Below, one piece after another: positions 3,334-22,537 of a DNA stretch of 64,000 nucleotides. The notes beneath the pieces were generated by a model. That model ran no database searches, had not been told where the DNA came from, and saw only the letters and a program-made list of their open reading frames with translations. Each line of letters starts with the position of its first letter. Within the stretch, counting starts at the first letter, position 1. Source of the stretch: an uncultured Erysipelotrichaceae bacterium (GTDB lineage: Bacteria > Bacillota_I > Bacilli_A > RF39 > UBA660). A program made the translations under genes and the position numbers. The stretch is taken from the NCBI GenBank assembly GCA_902801795.1, contig CADCJQ010000010.1, positions 2,358 to 66,357 of the forward strand. Reading direction: 5' to 3'.

Positions 3334-3750
3334 TTATTTCTTCTTATCTTTTTTAGTTCCGTATTTACTACGTCCTTGTTTTCTATCCTTAACTCCTGCT
3401 GTATCAAGTGTTCCACGAATAATATGATAACGTACACCGATTAAATCAGGTACACGTCCACCTCTTATCATTACAACACTATGTTCTTGTAAGTTATGTC
3501 CTTCTCCTGGAATATAACAAGTTACTTCCAATCCATTACTTAACTTAACACGAGCATATTTACGAAGTGCAGAGTTAGGCTTCTTTGGAGTCATAGTTCC
3601 AACACGCGTACAAACACCACGTTTTTGAGGTGAATTAATTTTTGTTTGTTTTTTTCTAACATTATTAATTCCAACTAACAATACTGGTGATTTTGGTTTT
3701 CTAACTTTACTACCACGTCTTTTTTTAACTAATTGATTAATTGTAGGCAT
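3334..3750 (-). CDS. rpsL: 30S ribosomal protein S12
   Basis: [46 protein letters not shown]. Confidence 0.99.
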
Positions 3751-3871: not shown

Positions 3872-4183
3872 TATTTTTTATGTATTTTCAGAAAAATATT
3901 ACATCACTTCATATTATTAATTCATATACAATTAAATATGTATCATCTAGCTTTCTTTTACTACATTCATTTTCTTTTCATCCTTTACTACAATAAAAAA
4001 TATAGTGTGTTTGTATTCTGGTATTTCAGAATTTACACACTATATTATACAAGGTCCTTTTGTTTTTATATTTCATCACTGTGCCTACACTTCGTCCCTT
4101 GTTCTTACGAATTTTTTCCTCATGCGCATTTTTGTAAAAAAATGCTTGATTCAAGATTTCAAGATGGAAACGCTGGCGAGCTA

Positions 4184-5563
4184 CTACCCAACAACGCCAC
4201 CGCCGCCAGGCTCAGGAGGGTCAAGCTCAATGCCACCGCCACCAGGCTCAACTGCTGACGACTCGAGGCATTCAAAGTTGCCATTCTGGTCCACGACACA
4301 GTGGTCATCACCAACGCCAGCAATGACGCGGCCATCAGTATCAGCGCGCGCAGAAACAGAGCCAGAATTATCCCGTGGTCCACATTCTGAATATCTATAT
4401 TCATTTTCGGTTCCTTCATCTTCTACTTTTTCTGTACATGTATTATTATATAGATTTGCTCCTTGTAATAATGTTTGATTTGCTGTATATTTTGATTCAT
4501 CACTTGTTCCTTCTATACAGAATGGCGTTCCATCTTTTACTCCACATGCATAGGCATTTGTTACTTCATTATTATTATTTAATTTTACTCCCAAGAAATA
4601 ATTTTTTCCTGTTGTTGCTATTAATTCTTCATAATTATCATATAATCCACTTGTTATTTGTGTTGGTGTTTGACGAACAAACTGACTATTTGTATCATCC
4701 CATATTCCCTGATTCCATGTTGTCAATTTTACTGTTGTTATATCACTAGGATCTGCTACATAATACATAAATTTACAATCTGGACATGACTCTATTCCCT
4801 TACTTGGTTCTTCTACCCATATTCCTTCATTACTTTCCGCTTTCATTTTAAAACTTATTGGTGTTCCACTTGTTTGGAAACTATTCCATTCAGTTGTTGT
4901 AAATACTGTCCTGCCGTTTACCCATGTACTAGTTGTTCCCATGTTATCTGTTCCTGGATTTGCAGAATCATATGTATCACTTATTGCTATTCTATCTGCA
5001 TCAATATATGCCTTAATAGTTAGTGTTCCTTCTATTCCACTGGCACTATTTTTGATATAGCCTACTAAAACTTGTTTGCCTTCTTCAACTTTTCCTGTTT
5101 CAGTTAGTGTATAAATATCAGCATTTTTACTATTTTTTGCATTCCAGTAATCATCACTTTCTTCTCCAATATTTTTTCCTGTTACTGCAGTATATGTTGC
5201 AATATAATTTATTGGTATTTTTTTACCATTTATTGTGTTTGTTACATCTACTAGAGTTATCTCAAATTCTTCTCCATCATCATATGTTGTATCTCCTACT
5301 ATTCCTACTGATACTGTATCAAGTACTGCATTATTTGTCTCTGTACTTTTTAATGGAAAAATATTTGTCATATTTAATGCACCATTTTGTGTCATATTAA
5401 AATAAATTCTTCCTGTTCCAATATTATTAGCAGCCCCTGTTCTAGTATAATTAAAAAATGAATATGTTACTCCAGCTACCGCTACAATTAATATTGCTAT
5501 ACCTATTAGTGAAAACATTATTTGTTTATTAGTTATATTTCTTCTATTATTTAATTCTTCCAT
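4184..5563 (-). CDS. Secreted/surface modular protein with SipW-type signal motif (VTYSFFNYTRTG) and Cys-containing, GC-rich C-terminal region
   Basis: 459 aa, N-terminal hydrophobic helix; N-terminal ~250 aa clearly paralogous to 20380..22434; RBS present. Confidence 0.8.
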   Translation of the reverse strand: MEELNNRRNITNKQIMFSLIGIAILIVAVAGVTYSFFNYTRTGAANNIGTGRIYFNMTQNGALNMTNIFPLKSTETNNAVLDTVSVGIVGDTTYDDGEEFEITLVDVTNTINGKKIPINYIATYTAVTGKNIGEESDDYWNAKNSKNADIYTLTETGKVEEGKQVLVGYIKNSASGIEGTLTIKAYIDADRIAISDTYDSANPGTDNMGTTSTWVNGRTVFTTTEWNSFQTSGTPISFKMKAESNEGIWVEEPSKGIESCPDCKFMYYVADPSDITTVKLTTWNQGIWDDTNSQFVRQTPTQITSGLYDNYEELIATTGKNYFLGVKLNNNNEVTNAYACGVKDGTPFCIEGTSDESKYTANQTLLQGANLYNNTCTEKVEDEGTENEYRYSECGPRDNSGSVSARADTDGRVIAGVGDDHCVVDQNGNFECLESSAVEPGGGGIELDPPEPGGGGVVG

Positions 5564-6307: not shown

Positions 6308-6868
6308 TCATAACACATTTTGTTTTTTTAATACCTTTTCATTGTCTAAATTAATAATAGGAATATCTAAACGATATTTATCTAATAAATAAGATACTAC
6401 TTTTAAATATTCTTCAATATATTCATCAGGATAATAATATTGCATTCTACTTAAAGATAACATAATTCCTCTTAGATAATTAAGAGAAACTTCATCCTTT
6501 ACTTGTACTTCATCAATTAAATCACTATATCTTCCCTTTATCCCATAATAATGCATCATATCAATAGAACCTAAAGTATTATAATCTACATATATATAAT
6601 CTGGTTCAATAACTTTTAATTCTTTGTCAAATAATAGCGATAACCCTCGTTTTACATAAAGATTATAAGCTGAATTCTTAGGATGATTTTTTTCTAAATC
6701 ACAAAGTGATATATAATCCATTCCGTTAAATAAAGCCTCTTCTTCGCTTAATCCTAATTTTCTTCTTGATAATAAAGCACCATTTTTTAAAATTTCTTCT
6801 AATTTCGTAATATCTAACAACATTAAATTATCTGTTTTATTAAATGAATGTGCATAATATTTTAACAT
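6308..6868 (-). CDS. Hypothetical protein, possible ADP-ribosyltransferase fold
   Basis: 186 aa; YAH...LEEILKNGALLSR...YISL...DEVQV pattern; RBS GGGGG. Confidence 0.55.
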   Translation of the reverse strand: MLKYYAHSFNKTDNLMLLDITKLEEILKNGALLSRRKLGLSEEEALFNGMDYISLCDLEKNHPKNSAYNLYVKRGLSLLFDKELKVIEPDYIYVDYNTLGSIDMMHYYGIKGRYSDLIDEVQVKDEVSLNYLRGIMLSLSRMQYYYPDEYIEEYLKVVSYLLDKYRLDIPIINLDNEKVLKKQNVL

Positions 6869-6906
6869 AAATCCCCCTTAACAAAAAATGATATGTTTCC
6901 ATATCA

Positions 6907-7206
6907 TTAATTACTACCATTAACACTTGTTGAAACTTCATCCATAAATTCTCTTCTATATGTTTCAACAACAGTATCTAAAAAGATTCCATAACTTCTT
7001 ACGTAAGACTCAAATTTAGGAAACTCTAATTCTAGTTCTTTATATCTCTCAAGATATCTTTTAGAGTTTTGATCACTCCATACATTATCAATACCTTCCA
7101 TTAAAGTCCCTAATCTCTGCATATAATTTTTTAATTCATCAGCACCATTTTTTACCTTATTGGCAGTATTAGTTAAATCTTGAGATTGTAAAATAACATT
7201 ATCCAT
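6907..7206 (-). CDS. WXG100-like (ESAT-6-type) protein
   Basis: 99 aa, helical pattern, central W-S-D at the WxG position. Confidence 0.7.
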   Translation of the reverse strand: MDNVILQSQDLTNTANKVKNGADELKNYMQRLGTLMEGIDNVWSDQNSKRYLERYKELELEFPKFESYVRSYGIFLDTVVETYRREFMDEVSTSVNGSN

Positions 7207-7218
7207 TTTATCTTCCTC

Positions 7219-7548
7219 CTATTCATCAAAATCCATTGATCTTGATATTTTTTCTTCTGCACTAATAATTTTTCTTGATGTTTGACATGCAACACCACCA
7301 AAGGATTCAATAACATCTATTAATTCATACATTTTAGGCATTGCTTGTTTAATTCTTTCTTCATATTTCAACTTATTTTGACTTACCCAACTATCAAGAG
7401 AACTCATAGATGCTTCAATATCACCTAATACCCCACGCATCTCTTTAGCAATTCTTAGTACTTCCTTTCCATCATTATCAAGAGCCTCTGGTGATATTCT
7501 AAAACTAAATCCACCATCAAATGATGATATTCCACCATTATATGCCAT
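7219..7548 (-). CDS. WXG100-like (ESAT-6-type) protein
   Basis: 109 aa, ISPEAL start motif, central W-V-S; tandem with 6907..7206. Confidence 0.65.
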   Translation of the reverse strand: MAYNGGISSFDGGFSFRISPEALDNDGKEVLRIAKEMRGVLGDIEASMSSLDSWVSQNKLKYEERIKQAMPKMYELIDVIESFGGVACQTSRKIISAEEKISRSMDFDE

Positions 7549-12028: not shown

Positions 12029-13123
12029 CTATTTTGATATTGTTTTAGTTTTAATATCATATATAATTTCAACTGTTCTATCTTGTTTATCATCCAAATT
12101 AATCTTAATTTTCCCATTTTCCATCGGGAAAATAGCTACCTCACCTTCTGCACAAGGTAGGCCATTATATTCACTTGTTGTTCCAATCTTTATTGGTTTT
12201 AAATTTTCTACATTTGAATCAATAAAGAATATCTCACCATTACTAACAATTATAATATAAACACCTGTATCATCTGCCATTGCACCAATATCATAATATT
12301 CTGCCAAATTATATACTTCACTCGATTTAAAAACAATTTTACCATTAGAATCATACTTAACAATATTACCATCTAAAATATAAAAATTCTTTTTATCTGC
12401 TACTATATAATTAGTTCCTATTTTATTTAAATTTTCATCATAAATTACAACATCTCCATTGCCACATATATACTCCCTAAAATAGTAGTTATCATTAAAT
12501 TTAATTATGTCTAATAAATTTTTTGTATACAAGTCAACTAATGAATTAGTTTCTAAATTTACAATATAACTATATTCACCACATTGACTACTAACACCAA
12601 TTTCATATCCTTCAACCAATAAATATTTACCAAGTTTAGCAATACCTGCACCAATTTTTTTACCATTAAAATATGCATAATAATCTTCTTCACTTGGCTC
12701 AATAATTAATTCGTTTTTACTATTTTTTGATTTATATATTACTTTCTCAGTTATTTTATACTGTTTTAAATATTCTTCTCCAATATCTTGACTTGCAACG
12801 CTATTATTTGACTTTGGCGTAGGAGACGGTGTTGGTGTTGAACTTTTATTTGAATCATGTTTTGTAGGAGATGTCGTTGCCAAATCATTCTCTTTTTCAT
12901 TTTGCTTTGAATTATTATTATCCTGTTCTTGCATATTATTGTGTTTAGCTTCAGAATTATCAATTTTTTGGAGAAATTTAATATACACAATATACCATAT
13001 TAAAGTAATAATAATCCCAACAATTATTACCAATACTATTTTATTAGTATTATTATTTGGCATTTGCTGATTCAAATTATTATCTGTATTTACTTGATTA
13101 TTTAAGTTTTTATCATTTTCCAT
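12029..13123 (-). CDS. Hypothetical membrane-anchored protein
   Basis: 364 aa; single N-terminal TM helix, low-complexity N/T/P linker, beta-rich extracellular domain. Confidence 0.75.
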   Translation of the reverse strand: MENDKNLNNQVNTDNNLNQQMPNNNTNKIVLVIIVGIIITLIWYIVYIKFLQKIDNSEAKHNNMQEQDNNNSKQNEKENDLATTSPTKHDSNKSSTPTPSPTPKSNNSVASQDIGEEYLKQYKITEKVIYKSKNSKNELIIEPSEEDYYAYFNGKKIGAGIAKLGKYLLVEGYEIGVSSQCGEYSYIVNLETNSLVDLYTKNLLDIIKFNDNYYFREYICGNGDVVIYDENLNKIGTNYIVADKKNFYILDGNIVKYDSNGKIVFKSSEVYNLAEYYDIGAMADDTGVYIIIVSNGEIFFIDSNVENLKPIKIGTTSEYNGLPCAEGEVAIFPMENGKIKINLDDKQDRTVEIIYDIKTKTISK

Positions 13124-13176
13124 ACATACCTCTCTACTATATTTAAATTATATCAATTTACATTATTAATGTAAAC

Positions 13177-13204
13177 AAAAAACGTAACTTTAACTACGTT
13201 TTTC
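13177..13204. terminator. Bidirectional intrinsic terminator-like hairpin
   Basis: AAAAACGTA-N8-TACGTTTTT inverted repeat with A and T flanks. Confidence 0.6.
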
Positions 13205-13294
13205 ATTACTTCTTGTATACCATATTAATATTTTTTTTGGAAATTTAATTTATTACAATTGTTATATTGATAATTATATTTTATTATTAAAGTT

Positions 13295-13357
13295 ATGAAT
13301 CTTATTGCTATAATTATATTATTATTTACCTTATTAGTACTAGCAATACAAAAATAG
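13295..13357 (+). CDS. Possible 20-aa hydrophobic peptide (type I toxin-like), MNLIAIIILLFTLLVLAIQK
   Basis: Hand translation; stop codon overlaps an antisense terminator hairpin; no clear RBS. Confidence 0.35.
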   Translation: MNLIAIIILLFTLLVLAIQK

Positions 13358-13435
13358 ACACCCAATAGACTGAGTGCCAACAAATTTAATTGAGGCGGAC
13401 ATTCACTTACAAAACTGAATGTTCCACTTTTTTAT
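13349..13435 (-). ncRNA. Candidate antisense antitoxin sRNA
   Basis: Three consecutive hairpins ending in GGCACTCAGT-CT-ATTGGGTGTC plus T-rich tail; TATAAT immediately upstream. Confidence 0.4.
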
Positions 13436-13450
13436 TATAATCAAGTTCTT

Positions 13451-14878
13451 TTAATATTGAATACCCCAAACGACATGATATTTTGCTTCTTTACCACAGC
13501 AAACACACTTATCATCAATTTTTTTACCATCTTCAACAATACATCTTGATTTACAACCTTTAATTTCTTTAATTTTTAATTCACAAGACTCATCACCACA
13601 CCACATAGCATGAATAAATCCTGGTTGTGTATTTAATATTTTTTCCATATCAGTTAAATTATGTGCTTCAAAAGTTAATTTATTTTGTCTTTCTAAAGCC
13701 TTATTATACATATCTTTTTGAATTGTTTCTAATAAATTAGTTATATATTCAACCGTTAATTCATCCTTTTTAATATTAATTTTTTCTCTTGTATCACGTC
13801 TTGCTACCGTAACAGTTCCATTTACTAAATCTCTTGCACCAATTTCTATTCTAATTGGTATACCATTAACTTCAGCTTCAGCAAATTTAAATCCTGGATT
13901 TTTTTCTGAATTATCAATATAACTTACGACATTATTGTCATTTAATTTTTTATTAAATTCACAACATAAGTTATTAACTTCCGTATTATCTTTACCAATT
14001 GGAATAATAACTACTTGCTTTGGCGCAATTCTTGGTGGAAGTACTAAACCATAATCATCTGCATGAACCATGATAATTGCTGCAATCATTCTTGTAGTTT
14101 TTCCCCAAGTTGTGTAATAAGCATATTCATCTTTGTTATCTTTATTTGTAAATTTAACATCATATGCTTTACTAAATTTTTGACCAAAGTAATGACTTGT
14201 TCCATCTTGTAAACATACACCATTATACATTAAATCTTCACAAGTAATAGTATATTCAGCACCAGCAAATTTTTCTTTTTCCGTCTTTTTACCAGAAATA
14301 GAAGGAATAGCTAAAATTTCATGATTAAACCACATATATACATCCATCATTCTTTTAGTTTCCCATTCAGCTTCTTCAGCAGTTGCATGAACTGTATGTC
14401 CTTCTTGCCATAAAAATTCTCTACTTCGAAGAAAAGGTCTTGTTTCTTTTTCATATCTAAATACATTACACCATTGATTATAAAGTTTTGGTAAATCTCT
14501 ATAAGAAGTAAGATGTTTTTTATAATAATCACAAAAAACCGTTTCAGAAGTAGATCTTATTGCATATCTATCCTCTAATTTTCTATCCCCTACTTCCGTT
14601 GCCCAAACTAATTCTGGAGCAAATCCTTCTATCAATTCTTTTTCTTGATTAAACAAATGTTCAGGAATTAACATTGGCATTTGTACATTAACATGACCCA
14701 TTTCTTTAAATTTCTTATCTAATATTGACTGTATTCTTTCCCATATTGCATATCCATTAGGTTCAATTGCAATACATCCTTTAACAGAAGTATAATCAGC
14801 AAGTTTTGCCGCTCTTACTACATCTGTATACCATTTTGCAAAATCAGTATCTCTCGATGTAATACTTTCATTTTTCAT
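13451..14878 (-). CDS. proS: Proline--tRNA ligase (archaeal/eukaryotic-type)
   Basis: FAKWYTDVV, LYNQWCNVFRYE, TRPFLRSREFLWQEGHT, C-terminal Zn-binding CVCCG; start after GGTGA RBS. Confidence 0.97.
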   Translation of the reverse strand: MKNESITSRDTDFAKWYTDVVRAAKLADYTSVKGCIAIEPNGYAIWERIQSILDKKFKEMGHVNVQMPMLIPEHLFNQEKELIEGFAPELVWATEVGDRKLEDRYAIRSTSETVFCDYYKKHLTSYRDLPKLYNQWCNVFRYEKETRPFLRSREFLWQEGHTVHATAEEAEWETKRMMDVYMWFNHEILAIPSISGKKTEKEKFAGAEYTITCEDLMYNGVCLQDGTSHYFGQKFSKAYDVKFTNKDNKDEYAYYTTWGKTTRMIAAIIMVHADDYGLVLPPRIAPKQVVIIPIGKDNTEVNNLCCEFNKKLNDNNVVSYIDNSEKNPGFKFAEAEVNGIPIRIEIGARDLVNGTVTVARRDTREKINIKKDELTVEYITNLLETIQKDMYNKALERQNKLTFEAHNLTDMEKILNTQPGFIHAMWCGDESCELKIKEIKGCKSRCIVEDGKKIDDKCVCCGKEAKYHVVWGIQY

Positions 14879-20379: not shown

Positions 20380-22434
20380 CTATGCATTAGGGGTAAATGT
20401 GCCATTTGAGTCCCATGTTCCATTAGGAAATTTTGTAAATTCTGGGTGGACTGGTGTAGTATGAAACATATCTGTAAAAGTAATACTTGATTTAATATTC
20501 CAATTATTTATTGCTGATGCATCAGTAAGACTTACATTATCTTGAAACATAGCTGTCATATTTGTTGCACTTGATACATTCCAATTCTCAAGTCCATCAA
20601 GAGTAGTTACTGTTGATGCACCGGTTTGATTAAACATATTACTAAAGCTTTGTACTTTTCCTACATTCCAATTTGTAAATGTTTGATATGATAATATACT
20701 TACATTTTGAAACATACTAGCCATACTAGTTACACTTGATACATCCCAATTTGATAGCGCTGAGAAATCTATTACTGGATCTCCTGTTTTAGTAGTTCCA
20801 CTTCCAGCCATTCCAAACATAAAGTTCATATTAATTACGCTTGATGTATTCCAATTTGCTAATGCACTTATATCTGTTAAATTTGTACAATCTCTAAACA
20901 TATTAGTCATAATAGTTACACTTGATACATCCCAATTTGATAATCCGCTTATATCTGTTAAATTCGTACAACCATAAAACATATTACCCATATTTTCTAC
21001 TTTTCTGGTTTTAGTTGCCCAATTAGATAGTGCACTTATATTTCTTAAATTCGTGCAATTTCTAAACATAGCAGTCAAAGTAGTTACACTAGATACATTC
21101 CAATTTAATAATCCACTTATATCTGTTAAATTCGTACAACCATAAAACATACCACTTATATTTTCTACACTATATACATTCCAATTTATTAAACCTTTTA
21201 TATCGGCTAAATATGAACAATTATTAAACAACTGCTGCATATTCTCTACACTAGATACATTCCAATTTATTAAACCACTTATATCAGTTAAATTTGTACA
21301 GTTTTGAAACATTGATGTCATATTAGTAACATTTGATGTATTCCACTGTGACAAGAAGTTAATATCTGTTAAATTTGTACATTGATTAAACATATTTGCC
21401 ATATTTGTAACATTATCAACTTTGAAATTATTTGAATTAAAGTTTTTTAACATTGATAAACCAGCAAATAATCCTATACTAGACTCTGGTGCATATATAA
21501 CATCATCGGCAACTACTATAGCTTTATAGGTATTATTACCTAATCCATCATCTACTGTATATACAGAAACTGTTCCTTTACTCATTACATCGGTTGCATC
21601 AAATGATGATAATGGATTTGCTAGTGCTACTCCATCTTTATGAAACTCTATACTAGTAATATTAGCTCTTATACTAGTCCAATTACTATCAACAACTAAA
21701 TTTTTCATAACAAAGTATTTCTCTTCTTCTACCCATATTCCTTCGTTAGCTTCTACTCTTACCTTAAATGATATTCCATTAGTTGATAATGAATTCCATT
21801 CACTTGTTGTAAATACTGTTCGTCCTGCTATCCAATCTCCAGGTGTTTCGCCATAAATGAAGTTACCATCTTCTATTCTTGATACTGTATCACTTATTGC
21901 CACATTACTTGCATCAATAAAAGCTGTCACATCAACACTTCCATTTACTCCATCTTCTCCACTTGGTATATATCCTACTAAGATATATTTACCATCTTCT
22001 ACTTGGCCTGTTTCTGTTAAATTATATATTGGATTTTCTCCACCACGATTTGTATAATAACTGGTATCCTTAGTACCTAAATTGTTTGCAGTTACATTAA
22101 AACTTATTGGTACTTCTTTTCCATTTATTGTGTTATTAACATCTTCTAGGGTTACTTTATATTCGATACCTTCACTATATGTTGTATCTCCTGTTATATT
22201 AATGGTTACGGTATCTGAATTACTACTATTTAAATTAGTACTTGATGTTGGAAAGACATTTTCTAAGCTAATGGTATTATTCTGAGTTGAATTAAATGCT
22301 ATTCTTCCTACCTTTAATGTATTTGCTGCTCCTGTTCTTGTATAATTAAAGAATGCATACGTTACACTACCTAATGTTAATAATAATGTAAATATTGTTA
22401 TTACTAATAACATTTGTTTTTTATTTTTTATCAT
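20380..22434 (-). CDS. Surface protein with DUF285/BspA-type LRR-like repeats
   Basis: ~25-aa repeats (LSNWDVSSVTxMxxMFxxCTNLTDIS); N-terminal TM and VTYAFFNYTRTG motif shared with 4184..5563. Confidence 0.88.
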   Translation of the reverse strand: MIKNKKQMLLVITIFTLLLTLGSVTYAFFNYTRTGAANTLKVGRIAFNSTQNNTISLENVFPTSSTNLNSSNSDTVTINITGDTTYSEGIEYKVTLEDVNNTINGKEVPISFNVTANNLGTKDTSYYTNRGGENPIYNLTETGQVEDGKYILVGYIPSGEDGVNGSVDVTAFIDASNVAISDTVSRIEDGNFIYGETPGDWIAGRTVFTTSEWNSLSTNGISFKVRVEANEGIWVEEEKYFVMKNLVVDSNWTSIRANITSIEFHKDGVALANPLSSFDATDVMSKGTVSVYTVDDGLGNNTYKAIVVADDVIYAPESSIGLFAGLSMLKNFNSNNFKVDNVTNMANMFNQCTNLTDINFLSQWNTSNVTNMTSMFQNCTNLTDISGLINWNVSSVENMQQLFNNCSYLADIKGLINWNVYSVENISGMFYGCTNLTDISGLLNWNVSSVTTLTAMFRNCTNLRNISALSNWATKTRKVENMGNMFYGCTNLTDISGLSNWDVSSVTIMTNMFRDCTNLTDISALANWNTSSVINMNFMFGMAGSGTTKTGDPVIDFSALSNWDVSSVTSMASMFQNVSILSYQTFTNWNVGKVQSFSNMFNQTGASTVTTLDGLENWNVSSATNMTAMFQDNVSLTDASAINNWNIKSSITFTDMFHTTPVHPEFTKFPNGTWDSNGTFTPNA

Positions 22435-22537
22435 TTTTACTATCTCCTTTACTTAATTAATTATTCCTACATAATGAATTACATATCAGCTATCATTATA
22501 GAAAGGGATTATTGGTCTATAAAAATGACCCCCCCCC

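Follow-up and report, generated by a model that had tools for sequence, protein, structure and literature searches.

The protein-coding gene at positions 4184..5563 (minus strand) of the window, the 64,000-nt stretch of DNA analyzed here, ends in a variable region (VR) that was very probably written by a diversity-generating retroelement (DGR), a reverse transcriptase system that rewrites the tips of proteins. The cassette found next to the corresponding gene in a close relative is absent from this locus, and the VR is probably an orphan, most likely frozen only recently. We put the probability of the explanation as a whole, namely a DGR-written VR, loss of the cassette at the locus, an orphan VR, and a recent loss, at roughly 0.6.

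An adenine-poor 3′ end in the target gene

The genome is a MAG of 1.51 Mb in 81 contigs, 71% complete, with 26% GC. The features of the locus referred to in the following, with the strand in parentheses, are:

4184..5563 (−), target gene, a 459-aa ORF with an N-terminal hydrophobic helix, a beta-sandwich module of ~250 aa and a C-terminal domain, rich in Cys, whose end is the VR
Upstream of 4184..5563 (−), RBS AAGGAAAGAGAG and promoter-like sites
4808..5542 (−), N-terminal module, residues ~8–252, by tblastn against the same genome
4259..4801 (−), C-terminal domain carrying the VR, residues ~255–435, from the AF2 model
4165..4367 (−), VR, TTCTGGCTCTG ... GGGTAGTAGCTCGCCAGCGTTTCCA, bounded by alignment to the template repeat (TR) of the related contig L010 and extending 19 nt beyond the stop codon
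4224..4244 (−), 21-nt in-frame insertion relative to the L010 TR and VR, a second copy of GAGCCTGGTGGCGGTGGC-ATT, by pairwise and tail alignment
4181..4186 (−), tandem stop codons TAG TAG, of which the first is used
4079..4164 (−), 3′ flank, homologous by blastn to the VR-to-TR spacer of DGR-bearing loci (L010 and G007:C98)
4126–4145, conserved small hairpin GCATTTTT....AAAAATGC within the 3′ flank
3993..4046 (−), hairpin (12+6 bp) followed by a T-run, a probable terminator (fold z-score −4.5)
3334..3750 (−), rpsL, followed by rpsG, fusA and tuf

The original prediction, made from the sequence of the window, had pointed to a run of codons ending in C or T, with no A, and to a local rise in GC, and both were confirmed. 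Of the 23 codons from 401 to 423 (GGC TCT GTT ... TGT GTC, window 4363..4295), 22 end in C or T, one ends in G (GCG) and none ends in A. Codons ending in C or T make up 39.5% of the first 395 codons of the same ORF (A 212, T 142, G 27, C 14), and at that rate the binomial probability of finding at least 22 in 23 is 1.9e-8. The GC content at codon positions 1/2/3 is 0.77/0.52/0.48 over the last 65 codons, compared to 0.39/0.41/0.10 before them, and the sense-strand A content is 0.14 in the tail versus 0.45 earlier in the gene. The VR itself, with its NNC/NNT codons, has 26 A in the 200 nt from 4168 to 4367. GC reaches 0.59 in the tail of this 26% GC genome; a 200-nt profile peaks at 0.555 at the 3′ end of the gene, and over 150-nt intervals the same island, at 0.607, ranks above all others in the genome, including those at the rRNA operons.

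The exact target protein was seen on three contigs, and its 90% cluster consists of a single sequence. On one of the three (L022, from a second assembly record) the DNA is 100% identical to the window over 7.4 kb, and this contig therefore gives no independent strain information. The record ena:ERZ28613711 (rumen metagenome sample STEW19-1_SAMEA5384018) has a contig identical to the window. A total of 753 homologs were found at E ≤ 1e-3. None had a name from its source. Precomputed Pfam domains were absent from the part that they share, and PF13306 occurs in a few of the longer matches. In an alignment of the homologs, the last ~45 residues consist of a constant scaffold (SA.A.[ST].G.V.AGVG..D.C.V...G.F.C.ES) alternating with hypervariable positions, which differ even among otherwise near-identical homologs.

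In a relative, this segment is the VR of a complete DGR

The closest homolog, P0004, is 78% identical to the target protein and was found on five contigs, of which four were examined, among them the rumen metagenome contig L010. A DGR cassette lies directly downstream of the P0004 gene on all three contigs that are long enough (L010–L012), and the 3.3-kb contig L013, which carries the same gene, ends within a MutS-like gene. Comparison of L010 with itself revealed a 185-nt repeat, giving the following features:

L010 10001–11287, target gene (P0004)
L010 11119–11303, VR, the 185-nt repeat shared with the TR
L010 11554–11738, TR, 185 nt, inside a called 64-codon ORF

The order of the elements is target gene, TR, a 143-aa MutS_I ORF, bAvd (NF033474, E 6e-11) and a 385-aa RVT_1 reverse transcriptase (RT), the last at 12826–13983. 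The L010 TR and its own VR have 27 mismatches, 26 of them at TR adenines.

When the window VR was aligned to the L010 TR, the only one available for the comparison, 22 of the 31 mismatches over 182 aligned positions fell on the 45 TR adenines (hypergeometric P = 1.7e-9), and identity was 93% outside the TR adenines but 51% at them. The alignment also required two in-frame indels (−3 and +21 nt) and left nine mismatches at non-A positions, both of which we counted against the explanation favored here. Two GC-rich elements, GAGCCTGG(C/T)GGCGGTGGC and (G/C)(C/T)(T/G)CGCCAG, which may be IMH-like stretches for target recognition, are conserved among the window VR, the L010 VR and the L010 TR. The 3′ end of the VR and its flank include the small conserved hairpin at 4126–4145, and the fold z-score of the region as a whole is only −0.6. 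Because of its homology to the L010 VR and the adenine-specific pattern of mismatches, the segment is very likely a genuine DGR-written VR. On this point the original prediction, a DGR-type VR at the C-terminal end of a surface protein, is borne out, since in P0004 the same segment serves as the VR of a complete DGR.

It had also been proposed that the EPGGGG tail following the last Cys reflects a mutated stop codon, which the comparison with L010 does not support. The tail is templated in the L010 TR ORF, which encodes ...CIESEADEPDPSEPGGGDDDK followed by TAG TAG (its end is also given as ...EPDPSEPGGGDDDK*). The window ending, ...EPGGGGVVG-TAG-TAG, can be derived from that TR by A-to-N changes (GAC to GGC, GAT to GTT twice, and AAG to GGG) with the TAG retained. 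EPGGGG is doubled, with an extra EPGGGGIEL, because of the internal 21-nt duplication at 4224–4244. A protein search with the 64-aa ORF encoded by the TR recovered three relatives, none of which has a duplication of this type. A DGR-mutated stop codon does occur in L010, where the first of the two tandem stops reads TGG instead of TAG and the second is used, but not in the window.

The cassette is absent from the window locus

Homology of the window to L010 and G007:C98 ends at position 4079, which is 105 nt past the stop codon and ~140 nt short of the point that corresponds to the start of the L010 TR. The terminator-like hairpin at 3993..4046 also occurs at L036 and G002:C15, two loci without a cassette, but not in L010, according to blastn and the sequence of L036. 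Beyond it, the housekeeping genes rpsL, rpsG, fusA and tuf occupy the place where L010 has its DGR cassette. The cassette is absent from this locus.

The statement in the original prediction that there is no retroelement in the window was correct: the sole RVT_1 match in the genome is at C3:80023–80679, on another contig. It belongs to the only DGR of this genome, a complete one, which also has bAvd and whose RT, of 491 aa, carries a C-terminal MutS_I domain. Its other features are:

C3:76627–78894, target gene
C3 78690–78809, VR, with 24 of its 25 mismatches to the C3 TR at A
C3:79147–79266, TR, matching its own VR only

The prediction had further suggested looking by BLAST for a copy of the segment that differs only at adenines and lies beside an RT. 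No such copy is present in the assembled 1.51 Mb (71% complete), and blastn of the segment against all 81 contigs yielded no cognate TR. An ungapped, adenine-tolerant scan of the same contigs, in which any mismatch was allowed where the genome has A, returned only the VR itself and A-rich noise; as a positive control, the scan recovered the TR in L010. An L010-type RT was not found in the assembled genome either, the best match being 38–40% identical. Contig C36, which has an 86% copy of the gene upstream of the L010 target, was considered as the missing cassette locus and rejected, as it contains a different element with another paralog. The VR is most likely an orphan, given that the locus has neither TR nor cassette and that the assembled genome yielded no TR or RT cognate to it.

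Loss and decay of the cassette among related loci

Among the family loci examined, the cassette is adjacent to the target gene in the L010–L012 lineage only. It was not found at 10–11 other loci (L014, L036, L038, L039, L040, L041, L042, the P0029 locus, G002:C15 and G007:C50), for which 1.4–10 kb of downstream sequence was available. The adenine-mismatch test on 13 family loci gave a graded series, from L010 (P 8.5e-18) through L037, G007:C98, L036 and the window down to L041 (P 0.92), whose tail has decayed to background and which served as an internal negative control.

Two loci retain parts of the cassette. In G007:C98, from a genome of the same genus that is 94% complete, the first half of the TR is kept, fused to VR-like sequence, with no RT adjoining. 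Its VR is 97% identical to the TR at non-A positions despite the decay of the TR, and the only DGR-type RT of that genome (on C29) is 37% identical to the L010 RT. L037 carries a VR–TR recombinant followed by a truncated MutS-like gene, with no RT. The L037 gene runs directly into the TR's own 3′ flank, which is why P0003 ends with the unmutated ...EPDPSEPGGGDDDK.

Broader searches gave a similar picture. DNA of the L010 TR or VR type is present in three of seven genomes of the genus, and an L010-type RT in none of the seven, three of which are 94–98% complete. The L010 TR matched no DNA in 400 sampled genomes of the family besides the window itself. An exact 29-mer from the TR had no match in JGI metagenome contigs and was found among GTDB genomes in RUG12925 only, the genome of G007:C98; a degenerate VR/TR pattern retrieved one more cassette-less VR from JGI metagenomes, that of L036. 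Cassette-less or decaying copies dominate the family.

The composition of the VR tail differs between these loci, against a background in the gene bodies of about 0.44 A and 0.31 GC:

Window, A 0.14, GC 0.59
L010, A 0.15, GC 0.55
L037, A 0.20, GC 0.52
L042, A 0.26, GC 0.38
L041, A 0.31, GC 0.34

A comparison of the window with L010 showed that synonymous G/C third positions had been kept at 13 of 14 sites in the VR and at only 14 of 41 in the body of the gene (Fisher P = 1.4e-4). This indicates that the window VR was written from an L010-like TR recently, on the mutational timescale of this genome, or is still being written. Freshness does not decide between a frozen and a live VR, because the orphan in G007:C98, with its 97% identity at non-A positions, looks equally fresh.

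Architecture of the target protein

The N-terminal module is common to dozens of loci in the 1.5-Mb assembly, with 37–52% identity over residues 8–252 by tblastn. Among the matches are C3:76648–77403, in the target of the C3 DGR, and C10:24081–24794, which corresponds to a second gene in the window (21724–22437). The full-length protein was modeled by AF2 with 89 homologs (mean pLDDT 86). In the model, a helix spanning residues 2–37 is followed by the invariant motif FFNYTRTG, a beta-sandwich, and the C-terminal domain, whose last four strands (residues 404–433) make up the VR, and then by a disordered Gly/Pro tail. Modeled by itself from a shallow alignment of nine sequences, the C-terminal domain had a pLDDT of 84 and a pTM of 0.79. 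Fixed and variable residues alternate along the predicted strands, which suggests that the variable residues would share one face of the sheet. This face presumably binds a ligand.

Neither Pfam, NCBIfam nor PDB sequences yielded a match for the target protein. For SipW-dependent or TasA/camelysin-type secreted fibers, no NCBIfam or Pfam model matched at E ≤ 0.01 or at E ≤ 0.1; the N-terminal helix, the FFNYTRTG motif and the beta-sandwich are the only features that speak for such an assignment. Two Foldseek searches of the PDB gave nothing significant. The one with the predicted C-terminal domain, run without a positive control, had a best E of 0.31 and TM ≤ 0.21, and its best 50 matches included no DGR variable protein; the best match in BFVD, also with the predicted model, was not significant (E 0.11). 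A C-type lectin or FGE-sulfatase fold was not recognized for the VR domain in the AF2 models (pLDDT 84–86, predicted structures, with nine sequences in the domain alignment). Annotated VR regions have been reported to be systematically C-type lectin folds (Roux et al. 2021, PMC8144416), which makes the lack of a fold match notable.

Origin of the VR and alternative explanations

In the explanation that we favor, a cassette of TR, MutS-like gene, bAvd and RT would, in this family's lineage, directly follow the gene. The RT would copy the TR RNA, misincorporating opposite adenines, and the cDNA would replace the last ~185 nt of the gene. TR codons AAC and AAT would thereby become NNC and NNT at alternate residues of the four C-terminal beta-strands (SA.A.T.G.V.AGVG..D.C.V...G.F.C). 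The present genome would have retained the gene with the first 105 nt of its 3′ flank and lost the TR and the rest of the cassette, so that the terminator and the rpsL operon now come next and the VR is frozen in the state in which it was last written. The undecayed DGR signature suggests that the loss was recent, and we infer that the cassette was lost rather than acting in trans from another copy.

The strongest competitor, which we nevertheless consider rather unlikely, is that the VR is a live remote target, rewritten in trans by an L010-type cassette of TR, MutS-like gene, Avd and RT that lies either in the 29% of the genome missing from the assembly or on a mobile element that escaped binning. 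Completeness of the MAG is only 71%, mobile cassettes are often missing from bins, and remote targets are documented for non-phage DGRs (PMC5758913). The window VR is as poor in A and as rich in GC as the DGR-linked VR of L010, its G/C third positions are conserved far above the rate of the gene body, and its GC-rich 3′ end, tandem stops and conserved 3′ flank are all intact; an undecayed VR is equally expected from continued rewriting. Against this stand the absence of a TR from the assembled 1.51 Mb, the lack of an L010-type RT in all seven genus genomes, including the three that are 94–98% complete, and the precedent of G007, a 94% complete genome in which a VR has persisted with 97% fidelity to the TR at non-A positions, next to a TR that has decayed and with no cognate RT. 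The original prediction had described the gene as a remote DGR target. The DGR-type VR on a surface protein stands, but a live remote target is the less likely status, as there is no cognate TR in the assembled 71%, the TR on C3 is unrelated, and related loci lose the cassette or let it decay.

The DGR on C3 could in principle have diversified the window VR as a second target. Its RT is the only one in the assembly and is 38–40% identical to the L010 RT; this DGR likewise has bAvd and a MutS_I domain, here fused to the RT, and its own target has the same N-terminal module as the window protein. DGR retrohoming, however, requires homology between TR and VR. The C3 TR matches its own VR only, the best local alignment between it and the window VR being gapped, of low identity and without a long exact stretch, and the VR-bearing domains of the two targets are unrelated (hhalign probability 0.1%). 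The C3 DGR as the writer is effectively refuted by this lack of homology, and we regard it as extremely improbable. Just as improbable is that the segment has nothing to do with a DGR and is instead a GC-rich piece recombined from a GC-richer organism, an assembly chimera, or a bias toward Gly, Ala, Val and Asp. The compositional jump is indeed abrupt, and G, A, V and D are frequent residues in the tail, but the same segment, in the same reading frame, recurs in hundreds of homologs and in assemblies independent of one another, and it aligns to a TR with adenine-specific differences. Amino acid content cannot account for the absence of A from the third positions of the codon run. A chimera was rejected, because the contig is reproduced at 100% identity over 7.4 kb in the second assembly record. 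An orphan VR, left behind when the cassette was lost, is the reading that we retain.

Comparison with known systems and implications

The Bordetella phage BPP-1 DGR (mtd-avd-TR-brt) is the prototype of these elements. It shares with the L010 element adenine-specific mutagenesis and a set of components, namely a TR, Avd, an RT and a target whose VR is C-terminal. The L010 element differs in its order (target-TR-MSL-avd-RT), in the additional MutS-like gene, in being cellular rather than of phage origin, in having its TR inside a called 64-codon ORF, and in a VR domain that is not recognized as a C-type lectin fold in the predicted structure.

DGRs with an MSL (MutS-like) accessory gene or with MutS_I-extended RTs have been described, and the Legionella DGR has an MSL (PMC5758913). 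With its 143-aa MutS_I ORF and avd, L010 shows no essential difference from these, nor does the C3 RT with its C-terminal MutS_I domain. In Treponema denticola, tvpA is accompanied by seven scattered DGR targets, and for the non-adjacent or remote targets of cellular DGRs, each VR has a matching TR in its own genome, from which it differs by A-to-N changes only (survey in Wu et al. 2018, PMC5758913). The window VR resembles such targets in lying at the 3′ end of a surface protein gene far from any RT, in its NNC/NNT variable codons, and in being part of a family of paralogs that share their N-terminal part. Unlike them, it has no TR in the assembled part of its genome, and homology breaks off at the place expected for the start of the cassette. 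Descriptions of remote targets, MSL accessory genes and MutS_I-extended RTs already exist (Wu et al. 2018, PMC5758913).

The other family of DGR targets in this genome, recognized by YWSLSP...GLRP C-termini and comprising the C3 target and at least 12 paralogs, shares with the window protein the N-terminal module and a GC-rich, A-poor 3′ island. Most of its copies have no matching TR. It differs from the window protein in its unrelated C-terminal domain (hhalign 0.1%) and unrelated TR.

As an example of method, the locus illustrates that, where a genome is very rich in AT, a GC island low in adenine at a gene's 3′ end marks DGR activity even with no retroelement nearby, and that a TR from a relative can confirm a VR suspected on this basis. 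The family also displays stages in the loss of one cassette, from intact (L010), through a VR–TR recombinant with a truncated accessory gene (L037) and a half-decayed TR (G007:C98), to clean absence with a breakpoint (window). These stages are relevant to the question of how long a binding site written by a DGR outlasts its writer.

More tentatively, and with the odds somewhat against it, the models and the distribution of the loci suggest a broader proposal. The family may define a VR scaffold other than the C-type lectin, a small Cys-stapled sheet of four beta-strands in which alternate, outward-facing residues are those encoded by TR-adenine codons, and it may have spread in rumen Bacilli mostly as cassette-less copies, the retroelement being a transient writer that is repeatedly lost and leaves frozen, fresh-looking VRs behind. 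A non-lectin VR fold, if confirmed, would represent a new structural way of accommodating massive sequence variation. A VR domain without a recognizable fold relative would, if confirmed experimentally, add a scaffold to the short list of those that tolerate DGR hypervariation. For the organism itself, the finding means that one of its modular surface proteins, of which there are dozens, is probably a ligand binder that can adapt.

Decay of DGR cassettes at related loci

The segment L037:2067-2458, at a related family locus, is the product of homologous recombination between the variable region (VR) and the template repeat (TR). The target gene there runs straight into the 3' flank of the TR, which leads into the opening ≈35 codons of the MutS-like gene; beyond these, the sequence is no longer homologous to L010. 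L010 is a rumen-metagenome contig on which a homolog of the target gene is followed by the TR, the MutS-like ORF, bAvd and the reverse transcriptase (RT). The recombinant segment is a snapshot of a decaying DGR cassette. A locus from a same-genus MAG (L019, G007:C98) carries a hybrid repeat at 485-640, the first half an intact A-rich TR and the second half mutated and VR-like; it is followed by ABC-transporter genes in place of the MutS-like, avd and RT genes.

VR-like gene ends and N-terminal modules in the own genome

At least 13 more surface-protein genes of the own genome have a GC-rich island (GC 0.49–0.57) at the 3' end, encoding a YWSLSP...GLRP-type C-terminus that resembles the target of the C3 DGR, the genome's only one. 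No DNA-level match to the C3 TR was found among these genes, and they look like a second group of orphan or fossil VRs.

YWSLSP...GLRP-type gene ends
C3:84025-85524
C3:131413-133158
C4:1112-3418
C4:35681-38092
C7:2273-4729
C9:30503-32716
C11:13166-15196
C12:52544-54379
C13:2-289
C14:5999-8380
C24:5073-7376
C41:3474-5573
C54:1-1734
C61:2-721

The ≈250-residue N-terminal module of the target protein occurs at dozens of loci across the 1.5-Mb assembly, including a second gene in the window, whose C-terminus is unlike that of the target:

21724-22437 (C10:24081-24794), minus strand, N-terminal module, 49% identical over ≈250 residues

Elsewhere in the window, 6308-7548 (minus strand) encodes two helical proteins of ≈100 residues and a 186-residue ORF, immediately upstream of a divergent HTH gene; the label putative WXG100-like comes from the original, sequence-only reading.

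Mobility and the templated stop codon

When L010 was compared with the own genome (C10, C36, C59, C16 and C8), the target gene was 83% identical at the DNA level and the 267-codon gene upstream in L010 86% identical (to C36:2602-3538), whereas flanking housekeeping genes reached just 71–76%. This difference suggests that the target gene or the cassette may have moved horizontally.

In the DGR-linked homolog, the templated TAG stop, whose A is open to mutation, has become TGG (L010:11279-11287), and the protein terminates at another TAG in tandem with it. Having two stops in a row where the VR ends appears to guard against DGR mutation of the stop codon. The TR itself (L010:11525-11719) is annotated by gene callers as an Asn-rich 64-residue protein (MRLFSLLPFRSGSVSANANTNGNVNAGVGNNDNCNVNPNGNFECIE...), and using such a TR ORF as a protein-database query offers a fast route to an inventory of TR variants.
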